Under the pieces are notes generated by a model. The model did not search any database and was not told the origin of the DNA. It was given only the letters and a program-made list of their open reading frames with translations. Positions 12,044 to 34,328 of a stretch of DNA of 64,000 nt are shown in pieces (the stretch's first letter is position 1; each line of letters opens with the position of its first letter). The position numbers and the translations under genes are program-made. This DNA is from a virus. Lineage: Duplodnaviria; Heunggongvirae; Uroviricota; Caudoviricetes. The DNA lies in the IMG/VR virus record IMGVR_UViG_3300010049_000009, positions 256,001 to 320,000 of that record. One strand, written 5' to 3'.

Positions 12044-13153
12044 ATGAGAAGTAGTCTTAATACGAAGAAAGTTGGTTTTTTTACGGAAGCAAATGATGTT
12101 GTGAGTGCTTATTACAAGGATATACGCGACACAATGACATTATTACCCGAAGAAGAAGTGGCATTGTTCAGAGCATATAAAGAAAATGGTGATGAAAAGG
12201 CGCGGATTAAATTAATCGAAGCAAATCAAAAATTTGTGGTTTCTGTTGCCAAAAAATACATCAACAATACCAACCAATCAATTTTATCCGACCTAATCAA
12301 TGAGGGAAACATTGGGTTGATGACCGCATTAGAAAATTTTAATATGGAGAGGGGTTTCAAATTCATAACATATGCTGTGTGGTATATCAAAAGAGAAATC
12401 CAAAACTTCATAATTGATAACAAATTGGTTGCTCAAACAAATTTGCAAAAAACAATATTCCATGTTGATAAAATTAAGGAGAAATTCCGAAACATTAATG
12501 GAAGGGAAATGGATGTTGATGAATTAATGGAAGAGTTGGAACAACAACACAACGTAAAAATAATTGATAAAAGTGATTTGTATGTTTTATCCTTTGATTC
12601 GATTGACACACCGGCGACACCAAAAACAGAGCAAGACGAATTTTCTCCAACCGAAAGTGAGTTCAATAATATGTTTTACACACAAAACACCATTATTGAC
12701 ATAATCGATGACGAGGATAATAAAATATTAGCCAAAGAATATTTGACAATATTATTACCACGTGAGCGGGAAATCGTTGAATTATATTACGGTATAAATA
12801 CATTTGCTGAATATACTTTGGATGATATTGCTGATAACTATGGTTTCACTACCGAAAGAATTAGACAAATCATTAAAAATGCGATTGACATAATGAAAAT
12901 ACGTCATAAAGTTAGTAGAATTGACGAAATAAAACAATATGTAACGCTATTATCAAGAGTAGAGGTGTATTTATTAAACTTACATCTAATGCAAAAATTT
13001 ACACCACAGGATATTTCCGAGAGATCGGATTTTACCGCCGAAAGTATTCAACAGGCGTTGTGTGGTGCGATAGAAATAGTTTATAACTTTTATAAATTTA
13101 GATTAAATGAAAATAGATACGAGGTTAAAGTCAAAAATCTTTCAGCGGAGTGA
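12044..13153 (+). CDS. RNA polymerase sigma70-family factor (sigma-1) with duplicated region 4
   Basis: LIEANQKFVVSVAKKY, DLINEGNIGLM, RGFKFITYAVWYI, TTERIRQI; extra sigma4-like C-terminal repeat. Confidence 0.92.
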   Translation: MRSSLNTKKVGFFTEANDVVSAYYKDIRDTMTLLPEEEVALFRAYKENGDEKARIKLIEANQKFVVSVAKKYINNTNQSILSDLINEGNIGLMTALENFNMERGFKFITYAVWYIKREIQNFIIDNKLVAQTNLQKTIFHVDKIKEKFRNINGREMDVDELMEELEQQHNVKIIDKSDLYVLSFDSIDTPATPKTEQDEFSPTESEFNNMFYTQNTIIDIIDDEDNKILAKEYLTILLPREREIVELYYGINTFAEYTLDDIADNYGFTTERIRQIIKNAIDIMKIRHKVSRIDEIKQYVTLLSRVEVYLLNLHLMQKFTPQDISERSDFTAESIQQALCGAIEIVYNFYKFRLNENRYEVKVKNLSAE

Positions 13154-14021
13154 CTCATTACAAAAATTCTACACCGACATTGCCAAATACCCTATTTTGG
13201 GGGTTGATGAGGAAGTAGAACTCTTTCACTCTTATAGAAATGACGGCGACATAAGGGCTAGGGATAAAATAATCCAAAGCAACCAACGCTTCGTAGTGTC
13301 GGTTGCCAAAAAATACGCCAAAACAGAAATCGAATTAATGGATATGATTTCAGAAGGAAACATTGGGTTGATGAAGGCGGCTGAAAAATTTGATACCACC
13401 TATGGATTCAAGTTTATAAGTTATGCAGTACATTGGATATATTCTTACATTTCAACATATTTGAATAAGAGGGAATTAATCAAGAAAAACGTTGATTATC
13501 AACTCCGAAAGAAAGTTGAAGAGATAAGGAAAGAACTCAATAAAGAGGGGTGGGATGTAAATATCAGTACAATAGCATCTATATTAAAGGATAGACATAA
13601 TATCCACGTAAGCGAAGAAGAGTTATGTGCAATATCCACCATTTCTATTGATATTCCAATAGACGACACAGATTATGTTTCCGGTCTAACAGATTTCAAT
13701 GAGTTTTACTGTTCTCACAATGAGGTTACAGATGCCATTGATGACGACCATAACAAGTTTCTTGTGGAAACATATTTGAGTTATCTAACAGCCAAAGAAC
13801 AAGAAGTCATCAAACTTTACTTCGGGATTGATGGTGAAGAAGCGTTAGGAACATTTGCAATGGTCGCCCAAAGATTGGAAATACCCAATCACCGCGCTGC
13901 TGGTCTTTTTCACAGAGGATTACGTAAAATGCAAATAGAATTTCGGAGAACAAAAAAACGAAGATCGGATTATTTTAGTAAAAATATATTAAGTGATAGT
14001 TATAAATTTTTAAATTCATAA
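13107..14021 (+). CDS. RNA polymerase sigma70-family factor (sigma-2)
   Basis: SNQRFVVSVAKKY, DMISEGNIGLMKAAEKFD, GFKFISYAVHWI; divergent region 4. Confidence 0.92.
   Translation: MKIDTRLKSKIFQRSDSLQKFYTDIAKYPILGVDEEVELFHSYRNDGDIRARDKIIQSNQRFVVSVAKKYAKTEIELMDMISEGNIGLMKAAEKFDTTYGFKFISYAVHWIYSYISTYLNKRELIKKNVDYQLRKKVEEIRKELNKEGWDVNISTIASILKDRHNIHVSEEELCAISTISIDIPIDDTDYVSGLTDFNEFYCSHNEVTDAIDDDHNKFLVETYLSYLTAKEQEVIKLYFGIDGEEALGTFAMVAQRLEIPNHRAAGLFHRGLRKMQIEFRRTKKRRSDYFSKNILSDSYKFLNS
13964..13990 (+). promoter_or_regulatory. phage promoter ATCGGA-N15-TATATT
   Basis: Within the sigma-2 3' end, upstream of the ParB-like gene. Confidence 0.65.
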
Positions 14022-23663: not shown

Positions 23664-26378
23664 ATGGATAATAATGAAATGGTAACTCCTCATGTAAATG
23701 AAAATGTGAGTGTTCTTGAGGAAACGATAAAGTACTTCAATGGTGATAAAAATGTCGCAAACATTTTTTCAGAAAAATACTCCTTTAATAAATCTGAAAC
23801 ACCACGTCAAGTCTATTTAAGAGAAGCAAATGAACTCGCTAAAATCGAATATAGATATGAAAAAAACATAACAAAAGAAATATGGGATAAATTAACCCCA
23901 TACGGCAAACACCGATATCGTTATATAGGTGATAACGATAATACTGATCGTAAGGAAATGTGGAGTAAAATTTTTGATCTATTATATGGTCAAGAAATTT
24001 GTTCGGGTGGTTCAGTGACTTCAACAGTAGGAACCGGCGAATTATCTTCTATATCCAACTGTACGGTTATAGAATCACCACACGATTCCCTTATTGGTCT
24101 CAATAGAAGTGCAATGGAAATGCAACTTTTAGCAAAAAGACGTTGTGGTGTTGGTATGGATATATCAACTATCAGACCCGAAGGTGCGATTGTTAATAAT
24201 CAATCAAAAATATCGGCGGGTGTTGTATTATGGATGAATAAATATTCCAACGCAATTAATGAAGTAGCGCAAAGTAATAGACGTGGTGCTCTATTATTGT
24301 CAATACATTGTATGCACCCCGACGTATTATCATTTATTCTTGCAAAGAAAGATTTGACAAAAGTAACCGGTGCTAACATCAGTGTCAAGTGGACAGACGA
24401 ATTTTGGGCGGCGTTAGATAATAATGGTGATTGGATTACCACATTTCCCGTTGAAATTCCAATAACAGATCAAATAATTGAAGCAGTAAAAGACGTAGAT
24501 TATAATGTACTCACCTCTATTGGAAACGAAATATACGTCAAAAAACTCAAAGCACGAGATTTGTGGAACACATTTATAAAATGTTCATGGCAAAGTGGTG
24601 AACCGGGTGGTTTCTTATGGTCAAAGATTATTGATTTTAGTCCAAATAGTGTTTATAAAACCTTACGTGCTATAACAACCAATCCGTGCGGCGAAATAGA
24701 TCTAGCTGCCAATGATTCTTGTCGTCTTATACACAAAAATTTGACAAAATGTGTGGAGTATCCATATGTAAGAGACCGACAAAAATTAAATGAAAATAAA
24801 TTATACAGACTTGCTTACGAAAACGTGTGTCTAGGGGATAATATTGTGGATTTGGAAGTAGATGCAATTGACAGAATATTAAATTCTATTGATCCATTCT
24901 ATATGAAAACACATCTTTGGGATGATAGTGATTTGGAAAATGATATTAAATCATATAAATTACATTGTATTCATAGTGATAAAGAAATAAATGACGAATT
25001 TATTCTATGGTTGAAATTCCGTGATAAGGGGTTACAAGGTAGGCGTTGTGGTTGTGGATTACTCGGTTGGGGTGATATGTACGCTATGTTGGGTGTTCCC
25101 TATGGTGACGAAGAAACCACCAAAAAAGTAATGCGAATAGTTTTCAAAGCAGAACTCGATGCGCAATATGATTTGGCAATCATACGAGGACCATTCCCAT
25201 TGTGGGATAGAAATTTGGAATTTGGTTTTACAGACGGTCAATTAGTTGGTAAAAATGATTTCTACCAATGGATGTTGGAAGAGTTTCCCAAAGAAACCGA
25301 AAGAATGTTTATGAATGGTAGACGTAATTCTTCGTGGAGTACGGTAGCACCAACAGGCACAAAGGGGTTAATAGCACAGGTTACAAGTGGTATAGAACCA
25401 ATATTTCAACCTTATTACATAAGAAGAAAGAAGGTTTATTCAGACCAAGCACATGATTTTGTTGATAAAGACGGGCAAAAATTCACAAGTTATGTCATAG
25501 TTCACCACGGATTAGAACAATGGTTAAAAGATGGTAATTTCAGTTATCACAAATTAACCGAAAACTGTAAAGAAGAGGATTGGAAGGAAATCTATAAATC
25601 ATCCCCTTACTATTTACAATCTTCACATGATCTAAACACCGAAACACGTGTTAAAACACAGGGAATGATACAACAATATATAACAGAAAGTATTAGTTCT
25701 ACTGTGAATTTGAAGAAAACCGCAACCATAAAAGACGTAGAAGATTGTTATATAATGGCACGAAAATATGGTTTGAAGGGTATAACAGTATATCGTGATG
25801 GTTGTAGAGCAGGAATATTGGTTACAAAGAATGATAGTTGCGAAGAATTTATTGAAAGATCGGCTCCTAAACGACCAAAAGTACTACCTGCCGACCTATA
25901 TAAGGTCAAATATAAAGGTAAAACTTGGATAGTAACCGTTGGTTTATACTGTGATAGACCATACGAACTGTTCGTTTTTGAACCCGATTTAGAAACAGTT
26001 GAATTATATGTTCCGAGTTATGGTAAAATAAATGACCACAAAGGTATTATTACCAAAGTATCGAAAGGATGTTATGAATTTAAGTCAGATTTGATTAGAA
26101 TACCCGATATGGAAAAATATAATTCGGTTGAAGAAAAAGCACACGTGTATAGAACCTCGTTGGAATTGCGACACGGAACACCATTAAAATATCTTATTAA
26201 TGTTATTAAGAGATATGATGATAATGTAACTTCGTTCAGTTCTTTGACAGGAAAAATACTTTCAAAGTATATCAAAGAACCCGAAAACTTGGATGAAAAA
26301 TGTCCACAGTGTGGGGAAACACAATTAATTAGAGAAATTGGTTGTGTAAGTTGTACCTGCGGTTGGAGTAAATGTTAA
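23664..26378 (+). CDS. nrdJ: class II (adenosylcobalamin-dependent) ribonucleotide reductase
   Basis: SNC, RRGA, ANISV, GEPG, TNPCGEI, TVAPTGT, GIEP, KGITVYRDGCR; C-terminal Zn-ribbon. Confidence 0.92.
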   Translation: MDNNEMVTPHVNENVSVLEETIKYFNGDKNVANIFSEKYSFNKSETPRQVYLREANELAKIEYRYEKNITKEIWDKLTPYGKHRYRYIGDNDNTDRKEMWSKIFDLLYGQEICSGGSVTSTVGTGELSSISNCTVIESPHDSLIGLNRSAMEMQLLAKRRCGVGMDISTIRPEGAIVNNQSKISAGVVLWMNKYSNAINEVAQSNRRGALLLSIHCMHPDVLSFILAKKDLTKVTGANISVKWTDEFWAALDNNGDWITTFPVEIPITDQIIEAVKDVDYNVLTSIGNEIYVKKLKARDLWNTFIKCSWQSGEPGGFLWSKIIDFSPNSVYKTLRAITTNPCGEIDLAANDSCRLIHKNLTKCVEYPYVRDRQKLNENKLYRLAYENVCLGDNIVDLEVDAIDRILNSIDPFYMKTHLWDDSDLENDIKSYKLHCIHSDKEINDEFILWLKFRDKGLQGRRCGCGLLGWGDMYAMLGVPYGDEETTKKVMRIVFKAELDAQYDLAIIRGPFPLWDRNLEFGFTDGQLVGKNDFYQWMLEEFPKETERMFMNGRRNSSWSTVAPTGTKGLIAQVTSGIEPIFQPYYIRRKKVYSDQAHDFVDKDGQKFTSYVIVHHGLEQWLKDGNFSYHKLTENCKEEDWKEIYKSSPYYLQSSHDLNTETRVKTQGMIQQYITESISSTVNLKKTATIKDVEDCYIMARKYGLKGITVYRDGCRAGILVTKNDSCEEFIERSAPKRPKVLPADLYKVKYKGKTWIVTVGLYCDRPYELFVFEPDLETVELYVPSYGKINDHKGIITKVSKGCYEFKSDLIRIPDMEKYNSVEEKAHVYRTSLELRHGTPLKYLINVIKRYDDNVTSFSSLTGKILSKYIKEPENLDEKCPQCGETQLIREIGCVSCTCGWSKC

Positions 26379-26404
26379 GAAATAAATTTAATAAAAATAG
26401 TAAA

Positions 26405-26623
26405 ATGAAAATAGAAACAGGATTATCCCTTACGTCACTTTTGTTCATAGTATTTGTGGTACTAAAATTGACAAATCACATTGATTGGAGTTGGTGGTGG
26501 ATAACAGCACCACTTTGGGGTCCATTTGGTTTAGTGGTTGGTGGTATAGTACTAATTGGTCTTGGAGTTGGATTAGTTCAACTAATTAGAGCGTTAGTTG
26601 CTATATTCATGAAAAAGAAATGA
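26405..26623 (+). CDS. small membrane protein
   Basis: LFIVFVVLKLT..IDWSWWWITAPLW, a common phage TM motif. Confidence 0.75.
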   Translation: MKIETGLSLTSLLFIVFVVLKLTNHIDWSWWWITAPLWGPFGLVVGGIVLIGLGVGLVQLIRALVAIFMKKK

Positions 26624-26625
26624 GG

Positions 26626-26652
26626 ATCGGATTAATTTATTGTTTTTATATT
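26626..26652 (+). promoter_or_regulatory. phage promoter ATCGGA-N15-TATATT
   Basis: Intergenic, upstream of the helicase. Confidence 0.75.
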
Positions 26653-26680
26653 ATAGAAAACATAAACAAATTAATATAAT

Positions 26681-28606
26681 ATGAAAGCAAGTAAATATCA
26701 AGAAGCGATCTATGATTGGGTAAAAAATGGTAAAGGAAGTTGTGTAGTTGAGGCTATCGCCGGATCGGGTAAAACTACTGTGTTGAAAGATGTGGTAAAA
26801 CTCATTCCTGACGACAAAAGAGTGTTGATGATAGCCTTCAACAAAAGTATTGTTGATGAACTTCAAAGAAAAATCCAACAATCGAATACAAAGATATGTA
26901 CATCACATTCATTGGGTTTTCTTATGTTGAAACAACATTTCAAATATCAAGATTACACCCCACAACTAAATGTAGATGAATACAAATATCGTACCTACAT
27001 TAAAAGGGAATTAAAAACCCTTACATTGGGCATTGAGTTTAAGGATAGAACAGAAGCGGAAGAGTTTAAAGAAGTAATTCTATCTTTGATTGATTTGTGT
27101 CGCTTTTACTTGTGTGAAACCAACGAACAGATTGAAACAATCGCCGAAAAATATAACTTTTTAGTTAATTCAGACCACGTCAGAATTATTAAGAATGTTA
27201 TTAATTGGGGTAAAACAAACCTCGAAACAATAGACTTCGGAGATATGGTAAGTTTACCAAATTATCTGAATATTGTTATCAATTCGTGTAAGTATGATTG
27301 GGTGCTTGTTGACGAGGCACAGGATTTGAGCGTTGCCCAACAAGAGTTGGTCAAAAGAACTGCAAAGAAAGGTGGTACAAGGTTTATATACGTTGGTGAC
27401 GGTTCACAATGTATTCAAACATTTGCCGGAAGCGACAACGAAGCGTTTCAAAAATTGAAATCCCTTCCAAATACCATTTCACTACCATTGTCAATTAATT
27501 ATAGATGTCCTTCATTTGTTGAGGGTCTTGCCCGACAATTTGTACCAAACTTCGAGGTTTTCAATAAACAAAGAGCAGGTATAACAAGACGTAATGTTCG
27601 TGTGGTAGACATTAAAAATAACTCTATGGTTATTTGTCGCAAAACACAACCACTGATTGAACTCTATCTTATGTTAATCAAAGAAAACAGAAAGTGTTAT
27701 ATCAAGGGGTTGGATATTGGAAACACCATTATTGAGGTGATAGAAAGATTGGATACACCATATATCGCCGCTGATTTGAGAGGTGATGGTGTAATACCAA
27801 AATTGTATAAACAATTATTTGAGCATCGGGATTCTATTATGAAGAAATTCAAAATTGACGTGTATGATGCCACAAATGAGAGTTTCTTCCAGCGAAAACT
27901 CGAAACAATTAACGTTATAAAGGCGTTGTCAGAAGGAATTACCGAAACATACCAACTGATAGATAAATGTAAGAGGGTTTTCAGACAACAAAACACTGAC
28001 GGTATTTGTTTGATAACAAACCATAAAGCCAAAGGGTTGGAAAATGATGTTGTCTATCATCTTTGTCCGTCATTGCTTCCCGACAAAAGAGCAAAAAAAG
28101 ATTGGGAAATACAGACAGAACAAAATTTAGAATATGTTCTTTACACCCGGACAAAAAATGAGTTTTATACCATATCGGAAGAGGATTTTCCTCCACCACA
28201 AGGTAGTAAAGATATAAAAGAATTAGTGGCATATCTCAAAGAGGTTGAACATATGTTAAGTAGAAAAACAACAGATGTTGAGAAGTCAAATGTTACAAAG
28301 AAGTTAGAACCACCTAAACCCAAGACCGAATCACAAAAAAAGGCGAGTGATTTAATGGATAAGGTAATGGAAAAGAAAAAAGAAGAGTTTGCTCTTATCC
28401 AAAAGTATAACCGAATTATGGTTGGTAAAACAATTGAAGATTGTTATATTATCTTCAATGATTTCGGAATAACATCTGACATTAATATCGCCACAATCAA
28501 CGGAAAACCGTATGAGGGTAGAAAAAAGGGTAAAAAAGATACAATTAACGTTGATATTGATGATCATAAATTAATAGTTTTAGAAGTAGTAAGAATAGGA
28601 AAATGA
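26681..28606 (+). CDS. UvrD/Rep-like superfamily 1 helicase
   Basis: AIAGSGKTT, VLVDEAQD, VGDGSQCI, LSINYRCP, HKAKGLE, YVLYTRTK. Confidence 0.92.
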   Translation: MKASKYQEAIYDWVKNGKGSCVVEAIAGSGKTTVLKDVVKLIPDDKRVLMIAFNKSIVDELQRKIQQSNTKICTSHSLGFLMLKQHFKYQDYTPQLNVDEYKYRTYIKRELKTLTLGIEFKDRTEAEEFKEVILSLIDLCRFYLCETNEQIETIAEKYNFLVNSDHVRIIKNVINWGKTNLETIDFGDMVSLPNYLNIVINSCKYDWVLVDEAQDLSVAQQELVKRTAKKGGTRFIYVGDGSQCIQTFAGSDNEAFQKLKSLPNTISLPLSINYRCPSFVEGLARQFVPNFEVFNKQRAGITRRNVRVVDIKNNSMVICRKTQPLIELYLMLIKENRKCYIKGLDIGNTIIEVIERLDTPYIAADLRGDGVIPKLYKQLFEHRDSIMKKFKIDVYDATNESFFQRKLETINVIKALSEGITETYQLIDKCKRVFRQQNTDGICLITNHKAKGLENDVVYHLCPSLLPDKRAKKDWEIQTEQNLEYVLYTRTKNEFYTISEEDFPPPQGSKDIKELVAYLKEVEHMLSRKTTDVEKSNVTKKLEPPKPKTESQKKASDLMDKVMEKKKEEFALIQKYNRIMVGKTIEDCYIIFNDFGITSDINIATINGKPYEGRKKGKKDTINVDIDDHKLIVLEVVRIGK

Positions 28607-28845
28607 AAGTAGTAATAACATTTAAAGTAGATGAGGAAACATTAGAAATGGCAATCCGAAACGCCTTGTATTATCGCATAAAAGTTAATAAAACAAACTT
28701 ATTGCAAATTATCAAAGACGAGGTTCATGGAAAAGGTCATTCTGTAATTGATTTTCCCGAACATTGGGGAGACGACTTAATGGATATAGATGACGAAGAA
28801 GTTGAAATGTTAGTAAACAAGTATAGAAACTTAATAGGTAAATAA
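28603..28845 (+). CDS. hypothetical protein
   Basis: 80-aa ORF, ATGA overlap. Confidence 0.65.
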   Translation: MKVVITFKVDEETLEMAIRNALYYRIKVNKTNLLQIIKDEVHGKGHSVIDFPEHWGDDLMDIDDEEVEMLVNKYRNLIGK

Positions 28846-28901
28846 AATGAAAAAGATTGAGTATTTTGTGGTAAAAGAAGTCGGAGAATTAACCGTATAA
28901 C

Positions 28902-28928
28902 ATCGGAATAATATTCCAATTTTATATT
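28902..28928 (+). promoter_or_regulatory. phage promoter ATCGGA-N15-TATATT (metK distal)
   Basis: Exact match. Confidence 0.75.
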
Positions 28929-28971
28929 AGGTGTTATAATATCAAAAATATTTGAGATAGACAAGAAGTAC

Positions 28972-28998
28972 ATCGGATTAATATTTTGATTTTATATT
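28972..28998 (+). promoter_or_regulatory. phage promoter ATCGGA-N15-TATATT (metK proximal)
   Basis: Exact match, 70 bp after the distal copy. Confidence 0.75.
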
Positions 28999-29046
28999 AG
29001 TGAACATATAAACGATATATTTTTTTAACAAATTAAATTTTTAAAT

Positions 29047-30201
29047 ATGAATAGTATAGTAAAAACGATTAGTAGCGAATACGTAAGTAGTGGACACCCC
29101 GATAAAATGGCGGATTGGATTGCAGATGCAATTGTGGATGCATGTCTCAGAGAAGACCCAAACTCTCGTTGTGGAGTTGAAGTAATGGTAAAAGATAACA
29201 TAGTTGTCTTGGGTGGCGAAATAAAAACGAACGCGGTTAAAACAAACTTTGAAAACATTGTAAAAGATACGTATGCAATTTTGGCTTTTCCTCATAACCA
29301 TAATCTTGATCCTTCAAACATTAAGGTTATAAACTTGATTGGAAAACAATCCGTTGAAATCAACCAAGGAGTTGATAGGGAAGATGGTGAAATCGGGGCT
29401 GGAGACCAGGGTCACGTTTGGGGTTATGCTTCTAACGACACAGATGTTTTTATGCCGTTAGGACATTACATTGCCAAAAAAATTGCAAACTATGTGTCAA
29501 AACAACCATTTTTGGGTCCTGACACAAAAAGTCAAGTTATTGTTAATGAAAGCGCAACCGGAAAAGAAGTAACCTATATTTTGGTAAGTACAATGCACCA
29601 AGTATTAACCCTCGATGAGGTGCGTGACCAAGTGCGCCAAATGATACTTACAAACGAAATGGGGTTAAGTGAAGATATATTCAAAAAATATATCAACTCA
29701 GTCATTAAGATTGATGTCAATCCATGCGGAAGTTGGAATGTGGGTGGACCCGTGAGTGATGCGGGTGTTACGGGAAGAAAATTGGTAGTAGATGCCTTCG
29801 GTGGTTATGCAAGAATTGGTGGGGGTGCTACCAGCGGCAAAGATATGTCAAAGGTTGATAGGTCTGCCCAATACGCCTGTCGTTGGTTAGCGAAAAATAT
29901 TGTGGCGGCAGGTATCGCCGACACTGCCGAAGTTGGATTAAGTTATGCAATTGGTGTAGTAGAACCTTGTTCAATCAACATTGAATTGAATAGAAACCAA
30001 GAACTTGTACCGGCAATATTGGAATACATTGTAAGAAACGTCAGATTGACCCCAAAAGCAATTATGGAGAGATTTGATTTCGCAAACCCACGATTTGAAA
30101 TAGTTACCTGTGAGGGTGCATATGGACACAATGACAATTCCATAACATTTCCTTGGGAGAATTTGAATCTCAAATATGATTTAGTAGGTTTGTTAAAATA
30201 A
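29047..30201 (+). CDS. metK: S-adenosylmethionine synthetase
   Basis: GHPDK, GAGDQG, D.KSQV, GGP..DAGVTGRK, GGGA.SGKD.SKVDRS. Confidence 0.96.
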   Translation: MNSIVKTISSEYVSSGHPDKMADWIADAIVDACLREDPNSRCGVEVMVKDNIVVLGGEIKTNAVKTNFENIVKDTYAILAFPHNHNLDPSNIKVINLIGKQSVEINQGVDREDGEIGAGDQGHVWGYASNDTDVFMPLGHYIAKKIANYVSKQPFLGPDTKSQVIVNESATGKEVTYILVSTMHQVLTLDEVRDQVRQMILTNEMGLSEDIFKKYINSVIKIDVNPCGSWNVGGPVSDAGVTGRKLVVDAFGGYARIGGGATSGKDMSKVDRSAQYACRWLAKNIVAAGIADTAEVGLSYAIGVVEPCSINIELNRNQELVPAILEYIVRNVRLTPKAIMERFDFANPRFEIVTCEGAYGHNDNSITFPWENLNLKYDLVGLLK

Positions 30202-30218
30202 ATATATGTTTGTATCTG

Positions 30219-30256
30219 AACCCCCATTTTTGGAAAATTAAGAATGGGGGTTTTTT
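30219..30256 (+). terminator. intrinsic terminator after metK
   Basis: AACCCCCATT...AATGGGGGTT followed by a T tract. Confidence 0.85.
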
Positions 30257-30259
30257 AAA

Positions 30260-30282
30260 ATGATTATCCGCAATAATACCCC
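30260..30282 (+). repeat. 23-bp motif copy 1 ATGATTATCCGCAATAATACCCC(GAA)
   Basis: Read directly from the sequence. Confidence 0.9.
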
Positions 30283-30299
30283 GAAAAATCCGAAAACAG

Positions 30300-30326
30300 A
30301 TCGGATAAATAACTTCTATTTATATT
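30300..30326 (+). promoter_or_regulatory. composite promoter: ATCGGA-N15-TATATT overlapping CTATTTATA (30316-30324)
   Basis: Both phage promoter motifs lie upstream of the ATG at 30336. Confidence 0.7.
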
Positions 30327-30335
30327 AGGGGTAAA

Positions 30336-31196
30336 ATGATAAAATTTAGTGATATGACAAATGAACAAAAAATAATAGTAGAAGCGGCAGCGAAACGTTT
30401 CCAAACTTTATCCGGTGTGGATAACATTATAATAAAGGAAAGTAACGTGAATAGAATTAGACATTGGGTAACAACCAAAGAAATTGCTATTATTAGTGGT
30501 TGGCGCGATGAAATAAAAGATGTTGTTTCAAACACCGAAAATCAGTGGGATATTGAAAATGTGGGTACAAAACTTACCACAAGTGAAAAAAAAGTAAGAA
30601 ATAGAGAATTAAAATCTACGTTATCTACTTTAGAATATGGTATAACACCAATCAAAGGTAATTTTTGGGAACGATACGGAACAAATAATCAAGTTGAAGT
30701 TAGAGAAGACTCCTACTTTGTTGTTAATTTGAATGATGACCCTAATTTTTTCAAAAATATTTTTGAACTCGGTGTTTATTATAATCAAGACGCTATACTA
30801 CATTCACCAAAAGGTAGTATTGAAGGGTCTTTAATTGGTACTAATAATTGTGAGTATTTTGGATATGGAACCAAAAGAAAAGCAGGAAATTTCATGTCCA
30901 ATGTTGAAAGTGAATTTATGAGTAGAATTGGGAGTATGGGTTTTAGTTTTGTTGAAAAAGAAAAAACAAGAAAAGATTCTAAACCAACTTTTGATGATAG
31001 AAAAAAAATAAGAACTGATAATAATGGTGTTGTATCCAACAAAGATATATCAGAAAGTTTAGACGTAGTATTCACACTTGGATTTGCTGCAAGACATTTA
31101 TGTAATGAAGAAGCGAGAAAAATCTTAATTCCATTAGGGTTAACAAATGAAGGAAAACGAATTGGGTATAAAAATTATCGTAATTTTTTAGTTTAA
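30336..31196 (+). CDS. T3 SAMase-like SAM lyase candidate with head-targeting leader
   Basis: IAIISGWR...RNRELKSTL...GNFWE...REDSYFV...LGVYYNQDAIL parallels my recollection of T3 gp0.3 (VSAFR...GCYRE...EEKTVRV...WEQDCVL). Confidence 0.6.
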   Translation: MIKFSDMTNEQKIIVEAAAKRFQTLSGVDNIIIKESNVNRIRHWVTTKEIAIISGWRDEIKDVVSNTENQWDIENVGTKLTTSEKKVRNRELKSTLSTLEYGITPIKGNFWERYGTNNQVEVREDSYFVVNLNDDPNFFKNIFELGVYYNQDAILHSPKGSIEGSLIGTNNCEYFGYGTKRKAGNFMSNVESEFMSRIGSMGFSFVEKEKTRKDSKPTFDDRKKIRTDNNGVVSNKDISESLDVVFTLGFAARHLCNEEARKILIPLGLTNEGKRIGYKNYRNFLV

Positions 31197-31213
31197 CAAA
31201 TGAAAGGGATAAT

Positions 31214-31236
31214 GGGGTATAATTGCGGATAATCAT
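31214..31236 (-). repeat. 23-bp motif copy 2 (rc ATGATTATCCGCAATTATACCCC)
   Basis: GGGGTATAATTGCGGATAATCAT on the + strand. Confidence 0.9.
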
Positions 31237-31244
31237 ATTTTTTT

Positions 31245-31253
31245 CTATTTATA
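31245..31253 (+). promoter_or_regulatory. putative late promoter CTATTTATA
   Basis: Upstream of the ATG at 31260. Confidence 0.6.
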
Positions 31254-31259
31254 TGTATT

Positions 31260-32090
31260 ATGAATATGATAGAACAAAATTTTCTTGTGGAAAGTAGTAA
31301 TAATTATTTAGATAAATTCCAATTCATATTAGGATATAATCCCGCAAAGGGTGGGCAACTTAACGAATCATACCATAGTGAATACCGTGGTTATACTAAC
31401 GTGGGGTTTGTTAAAGACGGTAATCAGTGGACAGCAAAGGGTGGTGATGCATATTTGTTTGTTAATCCCGATCTTCCCGAACACGTGCGTTTTAAGTTCT
31501 TAACAGATAAAGACCTTAATGCTAATTATATTAGTCAACTACCAATATCATTATCGTCAGCTCGTGTAACATTATATCCCGAATATGTGGGAACAATTTA
31601 TGACGAATTAATTAATGGAAAACCAAAAACCGAAGAGGATAAAGAAGCGGATTTGGTTAAACATAAAGAGTTCATGGCAAAATTGAATATCCAAAAAGGG
31701 AGGGTGGTTTTACTACACACTTCCCCACATAGAATTACAGACGGATACATTAAATCAGGTATAAAAAATAATTGGACACCAAACAACGCACAAGGTGGAA
31801 TATTCTTTTGGGCAACCAAAGAACGAGGAATTGATGCAAGCGGTGGTAATTACCATTACTATTGTGCTCTTCCTATTGGCGAAGTATATGATGGTAAAAA
31901 CAACCCGGAAGATTTTAAAGACGATTATGAAGCATTGGAAAAAGGATACAAAGTAATTGTTAATGAATGGAAACAAGGTGGTGTAAGCGGCGGATTTGCT
32001 GCGTATGGATTCACCAAAATACCAATTCCAATAACAATTATCAAATACGAAGGGAAACTATACGATTCCGAATGGAATGAAAAAAAATAA
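31260..32090 (+). CDS. probable head-packaged protein, possible ADP-ribosyltransferase-like C-domain
   Basis: Leader YLDKFQFILGY...QLNES; C-domain LLHTS...GGIFFWA...Y. Confidence 0.4.
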   Translation: MNMIEQNFLVESSNNYLDKFQFILGYNPAKGGQLNESYHSEYRGYTNVGFVKDGNQWTAKGGDAYLFVNPDLPEHVRFKFLTDKDLNANYISQLPISLSSARVTLYPEYVGTIYDELINGKPKTEEDKEADLVKHKEFMAKLNIQKGRVVLLHTSPHRITDGYIKSGIKNNWTPNNAQGGIFFWATKERGIDASGGNYHYYCALPIGEVYDGKNNPEDFKDDYEALEKGYKVIVNEWKQGGVSGGFAAYGFTKIPIPITIIKYEGKLYDSEWNEKK

Positions 32091-32153
32091 AATCATTTGT
32101 TATTTTTATAAATAATATGTATTTTTTGGATGAAATTTTAAACATAATCCAAA

Positions 32154-32606
32154 ATGACATTTTTAACAGCATGTGAAATTAGAAACGCCTATCCCGAAGG
32201 GATTGAAATATCGGCGTATGGTGTGGACACATACAGTGGTATGAGAAAGTATGGGGCTATGATGTATATGTTAAAAGACGGTTTCATACATAAAACATTG
32301 TTGGAACTCAGTGCTGATTTTAAAACACCTGAGGAAGCGGAAGAATTTTTACATAAAGAAGCGCAGGAGGTTGTCGAATTTGTAAATAAGAAATTAAACA
32401 ATGAATTACCCAAAGAAGAACCACCCACTAAAAAAACCTTTGTGGTTATGATGGAAGATAGTGGACCCGGTTCATTGGGAAAACCCGCAAGAGTTTATGA
32501 AGATGAAGAAGAAGCAGAAACCTATGCAAAGGAAATGGATGAAATAGATAATACATATTCTTATTGGGTTGAAGAATGTTTTTTTATTGCAAAAACAAAT
32601 GATTAA
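32154..32606 (+). CDS. hypothetical protein
   Basis: 150-aa acidic ORF. Confidence 0.7.
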   Translation: MTFLTACEIRNAYPEGIEISAYGVDTYSGMRKYGAMMYMLKDGFIHKTLLELSADFKTPEEAEEFLHKEAQEVVEFVNKKLNNELPKEEPPTKKTFVVMMEDSGPGSLGKPARVYEDEEEAETYAKEMDEIDNTYSYWVEECFFIAKTND

Positions 32607-32823
32607 AAAAGATTTTCCAACCGTAAAAGAGGTTATTTCTGAATTAGAACTGTATAACCCCGAAGCGCACGTTTGTTCCATTGCGTTCAAAAGGCGGTGG
32701 GGTTTCACCGTTGATTACGGTGGTTTTGTTGACGTAAAATGTTCAGACGATATTACTAAAAAAAATTGTACTATGGTCTATTTGAATATAGATGATTTGA
32801 ATGATATGAAACTAAAAGAATAA
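32599..32823 (+). CDS. hypothetical protein
   Basis: PTVKEVISELELYNPEA.V motif; ATG at 32599. Confidence 0.6.
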   Translation: MIKKDFPTVKEVISELELYNPEAHVCSIAFKRRWGFTVDYGGFVDVKCSDDITKKNCTMVYLNIDDLNDMKLKE

Positions 32824-33017
32824 CAAATAGAAAAAAGTTCTACATATTTTGGCAATAAATGAAAAAAGTGCCAAAATATAGTGGTAACTATTTGAAAAGT
32901 CTTTTTGAAAATTAATTTATTTATAGTAAGTTTATAAATAAATGATTGTTCCATGAGCCAAATTGAACTTGAAACAATCGTTTTTTGACAACATAAAGGT
33001 AAAAATTAGAAATATGA

Positions 33018-33713
33018 ATGTTAAAAAATGATATTTATGGAGACGGGTACAGTGAATATGTTAAATCCATTTCAAAGTTTAAACCCCTATCTATCGAAGA
33101 AGAGAAAGAAAACCTTCTTCTATATAAAACAACGGGTGATGAAAAATATCGCAACCGTATTTTAGAAGCAAATCTAAAATATGTTGTTAAGGTGGCAAAC
33201 CAATATAAACAATATGGTATTCCAATCATTCAACTTATATCAGAGGGGAATGAGGGATTACTTTACGCTATTGATAAATTTGATTACGAAAAAGCAAATG
33301 TTAAAATAATTTCCTATGCAACACATTGGATTAGATATAGAATTAGTTCCGCTGTAACAGAAATAACAAAACAAAATGTGGAATTTAAGGAAGGTTATGA
33401 ACAAACAAAAAAGTTTTCAACCGAAACAGAATACACAAATTATTATCAATCCCACCCACTATTAGATAACGAACCCGATAGAACCGACAATAATATTAAA
33501 ATAACAGAACAATTAACTGCGTGTTTAAGCGACAGAGAATTAAATGTTATTAAAAAATTATTCGGAATTGATACCGAAGAAAAAACTATAAAAGAAATAT
33601 CACACGAAATGGCGTTATCACAAGAACGTGTTTCTCAACTTCGTGATAAAGCGATTCTCAAAATGCAATCAGCGGCATTGGTTAATAACATCAATTATTA
33701 TAGCGAATATTGA
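33018..33713 (+). CDS. RNA polymerase sigma70-family factor (sigma-3)
   Basis: ILEANLKYVVKVANQY, LISEGNEGL, SYATHWIR, LSDRE...LSQERVSQLRDKAI. Confidence 0.92.
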   Translation: MLKNDIYGDGYSEYVKSISKFKPLSIEEEKENLLLYKTTGDEKYRNRILEANLKYVVKVANQYKQYGIPIIQLISEGNEGLLYAIDKFDYEKANVKIISYATHWIRYRISSAVTEITKQNVEFKEGYEQTKKFSTETEYTNYYQSHPLLDNEPDRTDNNIKITEQLTACLSDRELNVIKKLFGIDTEEKTIKEISHEMALSQERVSQLRDKAILKMQSAALVNNINYYSEY

Positions 33714-33721
33714 GAGAAAAA

Positions 33722-33730
33722 CTATTTATA
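33722..33730 (+). promoter_or_regulatory. putative late promoter CTATTTATA
   Basis: Upstream of the ATG at 33744 (operon with GH19). Confidence 0.6.
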
Positions 33731-33743
33731 AGAAAATAAAATA

Positions 33744-34328
33744 ATGACACATCAACAGGAAAAAGCGTTTAACTATATTTATACGGTTGCTGACGGATAT
33801 AGAAGGGTATTACCACTTTTAAACGTAATAGATAACCCCAAATTACACCATTATAACAAATTCTATAAAGATATTAGAAGCACCGAAACAATGATAGGTG
33901 GTATCAATTGGAATGGTTGGAATGAAATAGATAAGTTGGTTTCACTTTTTCCAAATGAAATAGACGCACTAGGAAGATCATGGGATTTTAGAGATATTAA
34001 ACATTTAGTCTTCACAGCATATAAAACTATATGGGAAAATAATAACCCCAACTTCGATATACAAACTTATCCCGCCGACTTTAACATAGATATTCAAATG
34101 TTTGATGCTTATTTATTATCCCCCAATTGCTTTACAAGTGTGCGTAACATAATAGTAGGTGGAAATTATCATAATGATATGCGGCGATACAATAATATCG
34201 TTAGAGACGCTAAAATAGCGTACATAAGAAAAATAGAGTTACCCGAATGGAATAGACAAGATTCCACTTCCAAAACAACACTGAAAGAAAAGTGGTACAG
34301 TAGAATAAAAATGATTGAACAACTATAA
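33744..34328 (+). CDS. hypothetical protein
   Basis: 194-aa ORF preceding the GH19 gene. Confidence 0.7.
   Translation: MTHQQEKAFNYIYTVADGYRRVLPLLNVIDNPKLHHYNKFYKDIRSTETMIGGINWNGWNEIDKLVSLFPNEIDALGRSWDFRDIKHLVFTAYKTIWENNNPNFDIQTYPADFNIDIQMFDAYLLSPNCFTSVRNIIVGGNYHNDMRRYNNIVRDAKIAYIRKIELPEWNRQDSTSKTTLKEKWYSRIKMIEQL

Follow-up and report, generated by a model that had tools for sequence, protein, structure and literature searches.

Background

Why should a phage carry, side by side, a gene for an enzyme that makes S-adenosylmethionine (SAM) and a gene for a protein that resembles enzymes destroying it? The question is raised by a 64,000-nucleotide stretch of viral DNA (the window, to whose positions unprefixed coordinates refer), which is C1:256001-320000, where C1 is the complete 367,155-bp IMG/VR virus record IMGVR_UViG_3300010049_000009, with direct terminal repeats (33.6% G+C). 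Here the SAM synthetase gene metK is followed on the same strand by a gene for a protein with a predicted SAM-lyase fold of the phage T3 type, and then by a gene for a predicted small ADP-ribosyltransferase (ART). A first-pass annotation of the locus had proposed that injected lyase depletes SAM at entry and that a lyase-insensitive phage MetK then rebuilds it for the phage's own methyltransferases. Both open reading frames (ORFs) lie where it placed them, on the + strand, and all the motifs it quoted are present in their translations; the adjacency is real, but the pairing is incomplete, since it mentioned neither the ART-like gene at 31260-32090 nor a second lyase paralogue in the genome. 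The three genes form a conserved module: in this clade metK tends to have ART-like and lyase genes near it, and the lyases do not need metK.

SAM depletion is a counter-defence of small T7-like phages, in which the lyase is made after entry and the phage's own DNA is left unmethylated. The present phage does have SAM-consuming methyltransferases, as the first-pass annotation supposed: six DNA methyltransferase genes are Pfam-positive, two of them preceded by the class-A promoter-like motif described below, and they imply a demand for SAM.

Results

Three adjacent genes and their predicted products

29047..30201, + strand: metK, S-adenosylmethionine synthetase, 384 amino acids, member of a jumbo-phage MetK clade (Pfam, structure match, tree)
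30336..31196, + strand: T3-type SAM-lyase-fold protein, 286 amino acids, start likely Met7 at 30354 (fold match, conserved residues)
30441..30962, + strand: lyase domain, residues about 36-209, with G108, F110, E124, Q151 and D152 (conservation in 150 relatives)
31260..32090, + strand: 276-amino-acid protein with a C-terminal ART-superfamily fold (residues about 145-273, invariant H153; fold match)

The metK product has all three MAT domains above cut-off (PF00438, PF02772 and PF02773) and matches solved MetK structures with an E-value of about 3e-80. Aligned to these, it retains GHPDK, GAGDQG, D238, R244-K245, K265, K269 and D271, which we take to have active-site roles; H17, D19, D120, D238, R244, K245, K265, K269 and D271 are invariant among 60 MetKs of the clade, and C227, G228 and W230 likewise. 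The clade, which rests on a quick tree, unites the window and 29 loci in 30 rows (SH-aLRT 98).

For the second gene, the likeness to T3 SAMase drawn from motifs in the first-pass annotation holds up under the fold check it had proposed. A PII/ferredoxin-like SAM-lyase fold is predicted, covering T3 residues 5-153 at 15% structural identity, and the T3 barrel ranks first in fold matching, a ranking that speaks to the families listed there and not to others such as the trimeric SAM-AMP lyase. Among 150 relatives, G108 is kept in 148, E124 in 149, Q151 in all 150 and D152 in 148; Q151 and D152 align to T3 Q94 and D95, with the register of the Glu ambiguous by one residue. Parts of PMC7877911 and bioRxiv 2023.02.27.530186 give the catalytic residues as E68, Q94 and D95 in T3 and G56, E69 and Q104 in Svi3-3. 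The window lyase scores 27 bits with PF23780 against a gathering cut-off of 28, which several relatives exceed. Judged by its fold and candidate catalytic residues, the protein likely cleaves SAM.

The lyase family comprises 2657 clusters. The second paralogue in this genome, C1:119506-120234 (-) (L245:2507-3235), scores 28.7 bits with PF23780 and sits 2.6 kb from two N6/N4 methyltransferase genes. Other members, annotated as hypothetical or unannotated, occur in 15 Lak megaphage records; cultured phages of Microcystis, Paraglaciecola, Alishewanella and Campylobacter have them too, and among the cultured carriers are Alishewanella Slickus01 (WGH49798), PANV1 (GD1_48) and CP220 (CPT_0131). Twelve of the 150 representatives (P0167, P0173, P0188, P0197, P0198, P0207, P0211, P0218, P0233, P0256, P0278 and P0290) are fused to another shared domain of ~150 amino acids, which had no Pfam match in P0167, the sole one scanned. 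In one relative, a 155-amino-acid ORF between metK and lyase (L091:7265-7732) resembles, on visual inspection, a lyase copy in decay; it has no Pfam or profile match.

An ART fold is predicted for the third gene. Its family has the His in 24/24 members and an aromatic second strand, with no conserved Glu column; by its features it comes closest, among named families, to Arr-ms, and ParT and AcrIF11-type folds are among the fold matches listed. A single-protein scan of viral sequences with this ORF gave no match, nor was there one among annotated phages, and an ART search of five genomes, which had no positive control, was empty. Fusions of ART and lyase domains occur in L081, L094 and L088 and in 4/150 lyase representatives.

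The first-pass annotation had also read departures of the phage MetK at NPCGSWNVGGP and GGGATSGKD as insensitivity to the lyase. We reject them as lyase resistance, since the changes are clade-wide and lie off the named T3-complex interface. At the interface positions themselves (E. coli), D132 and V133 are kept, and I178, I211 and A214 differ, in poorly aligned stretches. The MetK-binding loop of T3 is not conserved in the window lyase either, Q103-T104-H105 corresponding to G160-S161-I162; the T3 N-terminal tail (T4, N9) falls outside the alignment. Divergent lyases without MetK-binding residues are described in part of bioRxiv 2023.02.27.530186.

Linkage across relatives

Partners were counted within 6 kb in the best 80 of 277 viral metK loci. 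The ART-like gene is present in 25 of these 80 and the lyase in 14, and all 14 lyase loci also have the ART-like gene. Inside the MetK clade the ART-like gene occurs in 24/29 loci and the lyase in 14/29; outside it the figures are 1/51 and 0/51, with partner profiles that were seeded from metK-adjacent members and are thus less sensitive there. When the clade is cut at ~75% MetK identity into 15 groups, the ART-like gene is found in 11 (10 by ORF-called neighbourhoods, plus L085 from a profile scan), the lyase in 7 and a methyltransferase-like family in 5, with no other family in more than 3. All ten loci fetched by ART alignment hold both metK and lyase (8 contigs already counted, 2 new). The ART-like gene is therefore a more constant partner of MetK than the lyase is.

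The order of the genes varies (metK-lyase-ART, metK-lyase-lyase-ART, lyase-ART-metK, a convergent ART, or an ART joined in one protein with two or three lyase domains), and the ART-like gene is still kept where it is convergent on the opposite strand, in L092-L099 and L101-L107. The adjacency is not a one-off insertion, a possibility the first-pass annotation had raised: it recurs at 44-74% MetK identity between clade groups while other neighbours change.

Leaders of metK in the clade

A SAM-II-type riboswitch lies 5' of metK in 12/16 other loci of the window's subclade, on the basis of an Rfam match in L085 and profile matches in the remaining loci, 8 of which were profile seeds; in those relatives, expression of metK would be tied to the SAM level. 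The window's own genome has no SAM-II riboswitch, and two promoter motifs precede its metK instead. Carriers of the SAM-II (long-loop) type are L081, L082, L083, L084, L085, L088, L089, L091, L094, L105, L106, L111 and L259. Every carrier has the ART-like gene, and of the four subclade loci without the riboswitch, L086, L090 and L109 are without both partners.

Other leaders and one unusual metK were seen in passing. In L092, L101, L104 and L107 another conserved leader precedes metK, which by eye has a GATTTGGCAAC core and, after it, a G/C hairpin with a T-run; it is possibly another SAM-responsive element, and Rfam gave no match to it in L092 or L104. A short metagenome contig has a SAM-I/IV riboswitch (L166:122-230) before a clade-like metK. 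In L105:5980-8166 and L106 (same contigs as L047 and L001), metK is a 724-amino-acid open frame with an in-frame insert of ~320 amino acids after residue ~261, which suggests an intein or in-frame intron.

Promoter-like motifs, terminator and repeats

28902..28929, + strand: class-A promoter-like motif, first copy before metK (motif scan against shuffles)
28972..28999, + strand: class-A promoter-like motif, second copy before metK (motif scan against shuffles)
30218..30256, + strand: hairpin and T-run, likely intrinsic terminator of metK (sequence and fold)
30260..30281, - strand: 22-bp repeated element, left member of the inverted pair that flanks the lyase gene (genome matches)
30300..30327, + strand: class-A motif before the lyase, in overlap with a late-type TATTTATA box at 30317-30324 (motif scans)
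31215..31236, + strand: 22-bp repeated element, right copy (genome matches)
31246..31253, + strand: late-type TATTTATA box before the ART-like gene, where there is no class-A motif (sequence)

The class-A motif, ATCGGA-(w)(w)A-N10-13-TwTATAyT, is found 35 times in the genome, whereas 10 locally shuffled versions gave 0-2 copies each. Before metK there are two copies (28902 and 28972) and before the lyase one (30300), and with the hairpin and T-run at 30218-30256 they agree with the two tandem promoters and own terminator that the first-pass annotation gave metK; a simple consensus terminator scan did not list this hairpin. That annotation also gave the lyase both a middle and a late promoter. 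The late part is reasonable, structural genes having a related pattern; the 'middle' part is doubtful, and class-A reads as early-type, not necessarily middle, given that 25 of the 35 copies are grouped among small ORFs at C1 327-367 kb. As a Bacteroidota -7 box the class-A motif was rejected, exact TAnnTTTG being present in only 3/35 copies.

The TATTTATA box, with 131 copies in the whole genome, clusters upstream of starts, in 55 of 439 80-nt upstream intervals (4.8% of positions). Among 11 ORFs picked from the list of those bearing the late pattern, five match structural PHROGs (head maturation protease, portal, tail tube, sheath and wedge), which makes the late label reasonable, the pattern seen before these five being related to, not identical with, the TATTTATA pattern counted above. 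Both motifs together stand upstream of 5/439 ORFs.

A sigma-70 promoter scan performed at chance level (24 found, 22.6 expected), and an Rfam search of window positions 26000-34000 gave no match. Several sigma-70-like genes lie at 33018-33713 and about 12044-14021, one of them Pfam-confirmed, with paralogous matches at C1 268-270 kb; they could read the two promoter classes. The 22-bp element matches 10 places in the genome when up to 4 mismatches are allowed, of which 9 are intergenic, and is also seen, often as inverted pairs, at C1 about 69658/69787, 197471/197685 and 291127/291179/291835; it could represent a regulator site or a scar left by mobility.

Signs of head packaging

30354..30440, + strand: leader, residues 7-35, with I-K-E35 at its end; putative propeptide for head targeting that includes a site for the prohead protease (paralogue identity, conservation)

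The first 21 amino acids of the lyase leader are identical in the paralogue at C1:119506-120234, and 127 bases over promoter and leader are 85% identical. A third, unrelated ORF, C1:65473-66405 (-), has a similar leader; it stands in tandem with a similar uncharacterised ORF (64562-65473, -), and the two may be further head cargo. Leader length varies among the 150 relatives, but E35 is kept in 142, and in 138 the residue two positions earlier is L, I or V. The hydrophobic-x-E site pattern repeats internally in 22 of 28 long proteins examined, as expected if the head protease cuts long proteins apart.

In T4, according to part of PMC9026906, internal proteins and the ART Alt are packaged by way of N-terminal propeptides cut by gp21, and part of PMC9503650 proposes that head-packaged ARTs are widespread. 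The features of T4-type packaging present here are a late-type promoter box, an N-terminal propeptide ending in hydrophobic-x-Glu and a head protease gene in the genome. From the late-type motif, the leader shared with the paralogue and the conserved site, we infer that the lyase and the ART-like protein are likely packaged in the head. No virion proteome was found, and the main text of PMC2853527, which does not name the CP220 homologue CPT_0131, is no evidence either way.

The phage and its likely host

Besides that for the head maturation protease, there are genes for a major head protein, portal, tail sheath and tail tube, and on these genes we take the phage to be a T4-like jumbo myophage. 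Four sequencing runs, all termite-gut metagenomes, hold nearly all sampled words of the sequence, so a termite gut may be where the phage DNA originated; no RNA runs were among those listed as holding the locus. The host likely belongs to the phylum Bacteroidota. Two hints point there: the 15 Lak records with lyase relatives are Prevotella records, and among 14 control genomes only B. thetaiotaomicron matches the riboswitch family of the relatives.

Discussion

A proposed mechanism and its difficulties

We hypothesize, tentatively and with slightly less than even confidence, that an injected lyase and ART attack the host's SAM supply and that the phage MetK resupplies SAM. Both injected proteins would be made late and packed into the head, where the head protease would trim them; on entry, the lyase would cleave host SAM and weaken SAM-dependent defence, and MetK, likely early, would restore SAM for the phage DNA methyltransferases. 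MetK would perhaps be needed late too, offsetting lyase made for packaging, and the scheme would require no binding of the lyase to either MetK. By analogy with T3, the defence systems affected would be type I restriction-modification (RM) or BREX, against both of which the T3 lyase acts according to part of bioRxiv 2023.02.27.530186.

Several observations weigh against this hypothesis. Its main difficulty is that lyase and metK have the early-type class-A motif in common, which implies co-expression of the two unless unprocessed lyase is inactive. An early [LIV]xE is found in 274 of 439 ORFs, and with this 62% background we rejected the pattern as a packaging signal by itself; the conserved E35 could be structural instead. 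The co-occurrence of metK and lyase across jumbo phages, which the first-pass annotation proposed to examine, is seen as adjacency in 14/29 clade loci, but most lyases have no metK nearby: among the best 80 of 126 viral lyase loci, metK lies within 8 kb of only 3, and the ART-like gene accompanies 10. A search of five large lyase-bearing records, only one of them complete, found metK in none (0/5), and Prevotella is absent from the ten organism names tallied among MetK matches in annotated phages. Neither partner lies within 4 kb in 80 metagenome metK loci, including three at 51-53% identity, and 3/5 clade records without an adjacent lyase carry a lyase elsewhere.

Alternative explanations

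A fuller version of the scheme appears rather unlikely: packaged lyase and an Arr-like ART, in some phages one polyprotein, would be injected together, destroy SAM, disable host SAM synthesis or ADP-ribosylate SAM itself, and so shut down RM, BREX and SAM-AMP signalling, after which a resistant phage MetK, riboswitch-gated in many relatives, would take over supply. ParT ADP-ribosylates Prs, and Arr ADP-ribosylates rifampin. In keeping with such precedents, the ART and MetK could be the core of the system and the lyase an optional helper, with the ART inactivating host SAM synthesis (by ADP-ribosylating host MetK, or SAM or a related small molecule) and the phage MetK acting as a resistant replacement. 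The constancy of the ART-like gene beside metK, even when convergent, favours this, as do its nearest named family, Arr-ms, and its ParT and AcrIF11-type fold matches; yet ART-like genes stand beside lyases with no metK in the flank at 7 loci, the family has no conserved catalytic Glu, and the substrate is purely conjectural. We regard it as unlikely. That the lyase would spare SAM and cleave the type III CRISPR messenger SAM-AMP, like AcrIIIB4, leaving MetK as an auxiliary gene that feeds the methyltransferases, is quite unlikely, even though a shared promoter class would then cause no futile cycle and part of bioRxiv 2025.04.28.651013 describes a phage lyase with an N-terminal extension that cleaves SAM-AMP and not SAM.

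The genes might also be independent accessory genes in an inherited neighbourhood, with no functional tie. A single MetK clade contains every linked case except one, lyases do occur away from metK in clade records, and lyase and ART may merely cluster as head-packaged cargo. Against this, metK, lyase and ART stay while other neighbours change, the adjacency persists despite varying order and strand, ART-lyase fusions exist, and two of the three proteins come from families acting on one metabolite. We regard a purely inherited neighbourhood as quite unlikely. The least probable reading that we considered, and a highly unlikely one, keeps the lyase homologue inside the infected cell, co-expressed with MetK as a regulator of the SAM pool, a clean-up enzyme for damaged SAM or a partner of MetK. 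The class-A motif common to both genes speaks for it; the late box, the shared leader and the conserved hydrophobic-x-E site speak against it, as do the terminator-like hairpin between the two genes and the loss of conservation in the T3 MetK-binding loop.

Relation to known systems

T3 gp0.3 (PF23780; PDB 8BB1, 7OCK) and the window lyase have in common the predicted fold, the G-x-aromatic-x-E, acidic E-x-S/T and QD motifs and, likely, SAM cleavage. The window lyase differs in its N-terminal leader, C-terminal tail, late-type box and unconserved QTH loop; its gene also neighbours those for a phage MetK and an ART-fold protein, and its family is often duplicated or fused. With the Svi3-3 and Orf1 SAM lyases and the SAM-AMP lyases (C. 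botulinum 9GAD/9GAB; AcrIIIB4; part of PMC12255297) it has in common a PII/ferredoxin-like core and a catalytic Glu and Gln. As in the T4 internal proteins and Alt (parts of PMC9026906 and PMC9503650), there would be short N-terminal propeptides ending in Glu, an injected ART and counter-defence cargo, all putative here; the leaders are longer and unrelated in sequence, and the ART is small and Arr/ART-PolyVal-like, not Alt-like. It has the minimal ART fold and conserved strand-1 His of Arr rifampin ADP-ribosyltransferase (PF12120), ART-PolyVal (PF18760) and ParT.

Phage MetK auxiliary genes are known (PHROG 1569; Ca. Heliusvirales; Streptococcus prophages), likewise with an intact three-domain MetK in a methyltransferase-rich phage; part of PMC11283538 reports MetK in 58.9% of Ca. 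Heliusvirales genomes. Here, by comparison, a distinct jumbo-phage clade is tied to ART-like and lyase genes and has a SAM-II-type riboswitch in many relatives. The first-pass annotation knew of no description of the pairing, and our literature search, whose scope left aside most subscription journals and supplements (with possible family lists in two comparative-genomics papers), found no account of pair or trio. No paper was found that combines three of 'SAM lyase', 'ADP-ribosyltransferase', 'SAM synthetase' and 'metK'; the main text of PMC7824862 mentions neither MetK, DUF3293 nor S-adenosyl, and in PMC13037316 metK is located in the host genome. The module is real, conserved and apparently undescribed, each part being of a known kind, and it is apparently a variant of SAM-targeting counter-defence.

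The three proteins are all small, and standard E. coli strains would serve for assays of them. If the proposed mechanism is true, virions would come pre-loaded with members of a large lyase family, those of Lak megaphages included; a so far uncharacterised ART family would be connected, in a testable way, with SAM metabolism; and one clade of jumbo phages would reconcile SAM destruction with methylation of its own DNA through a MetK of its own.

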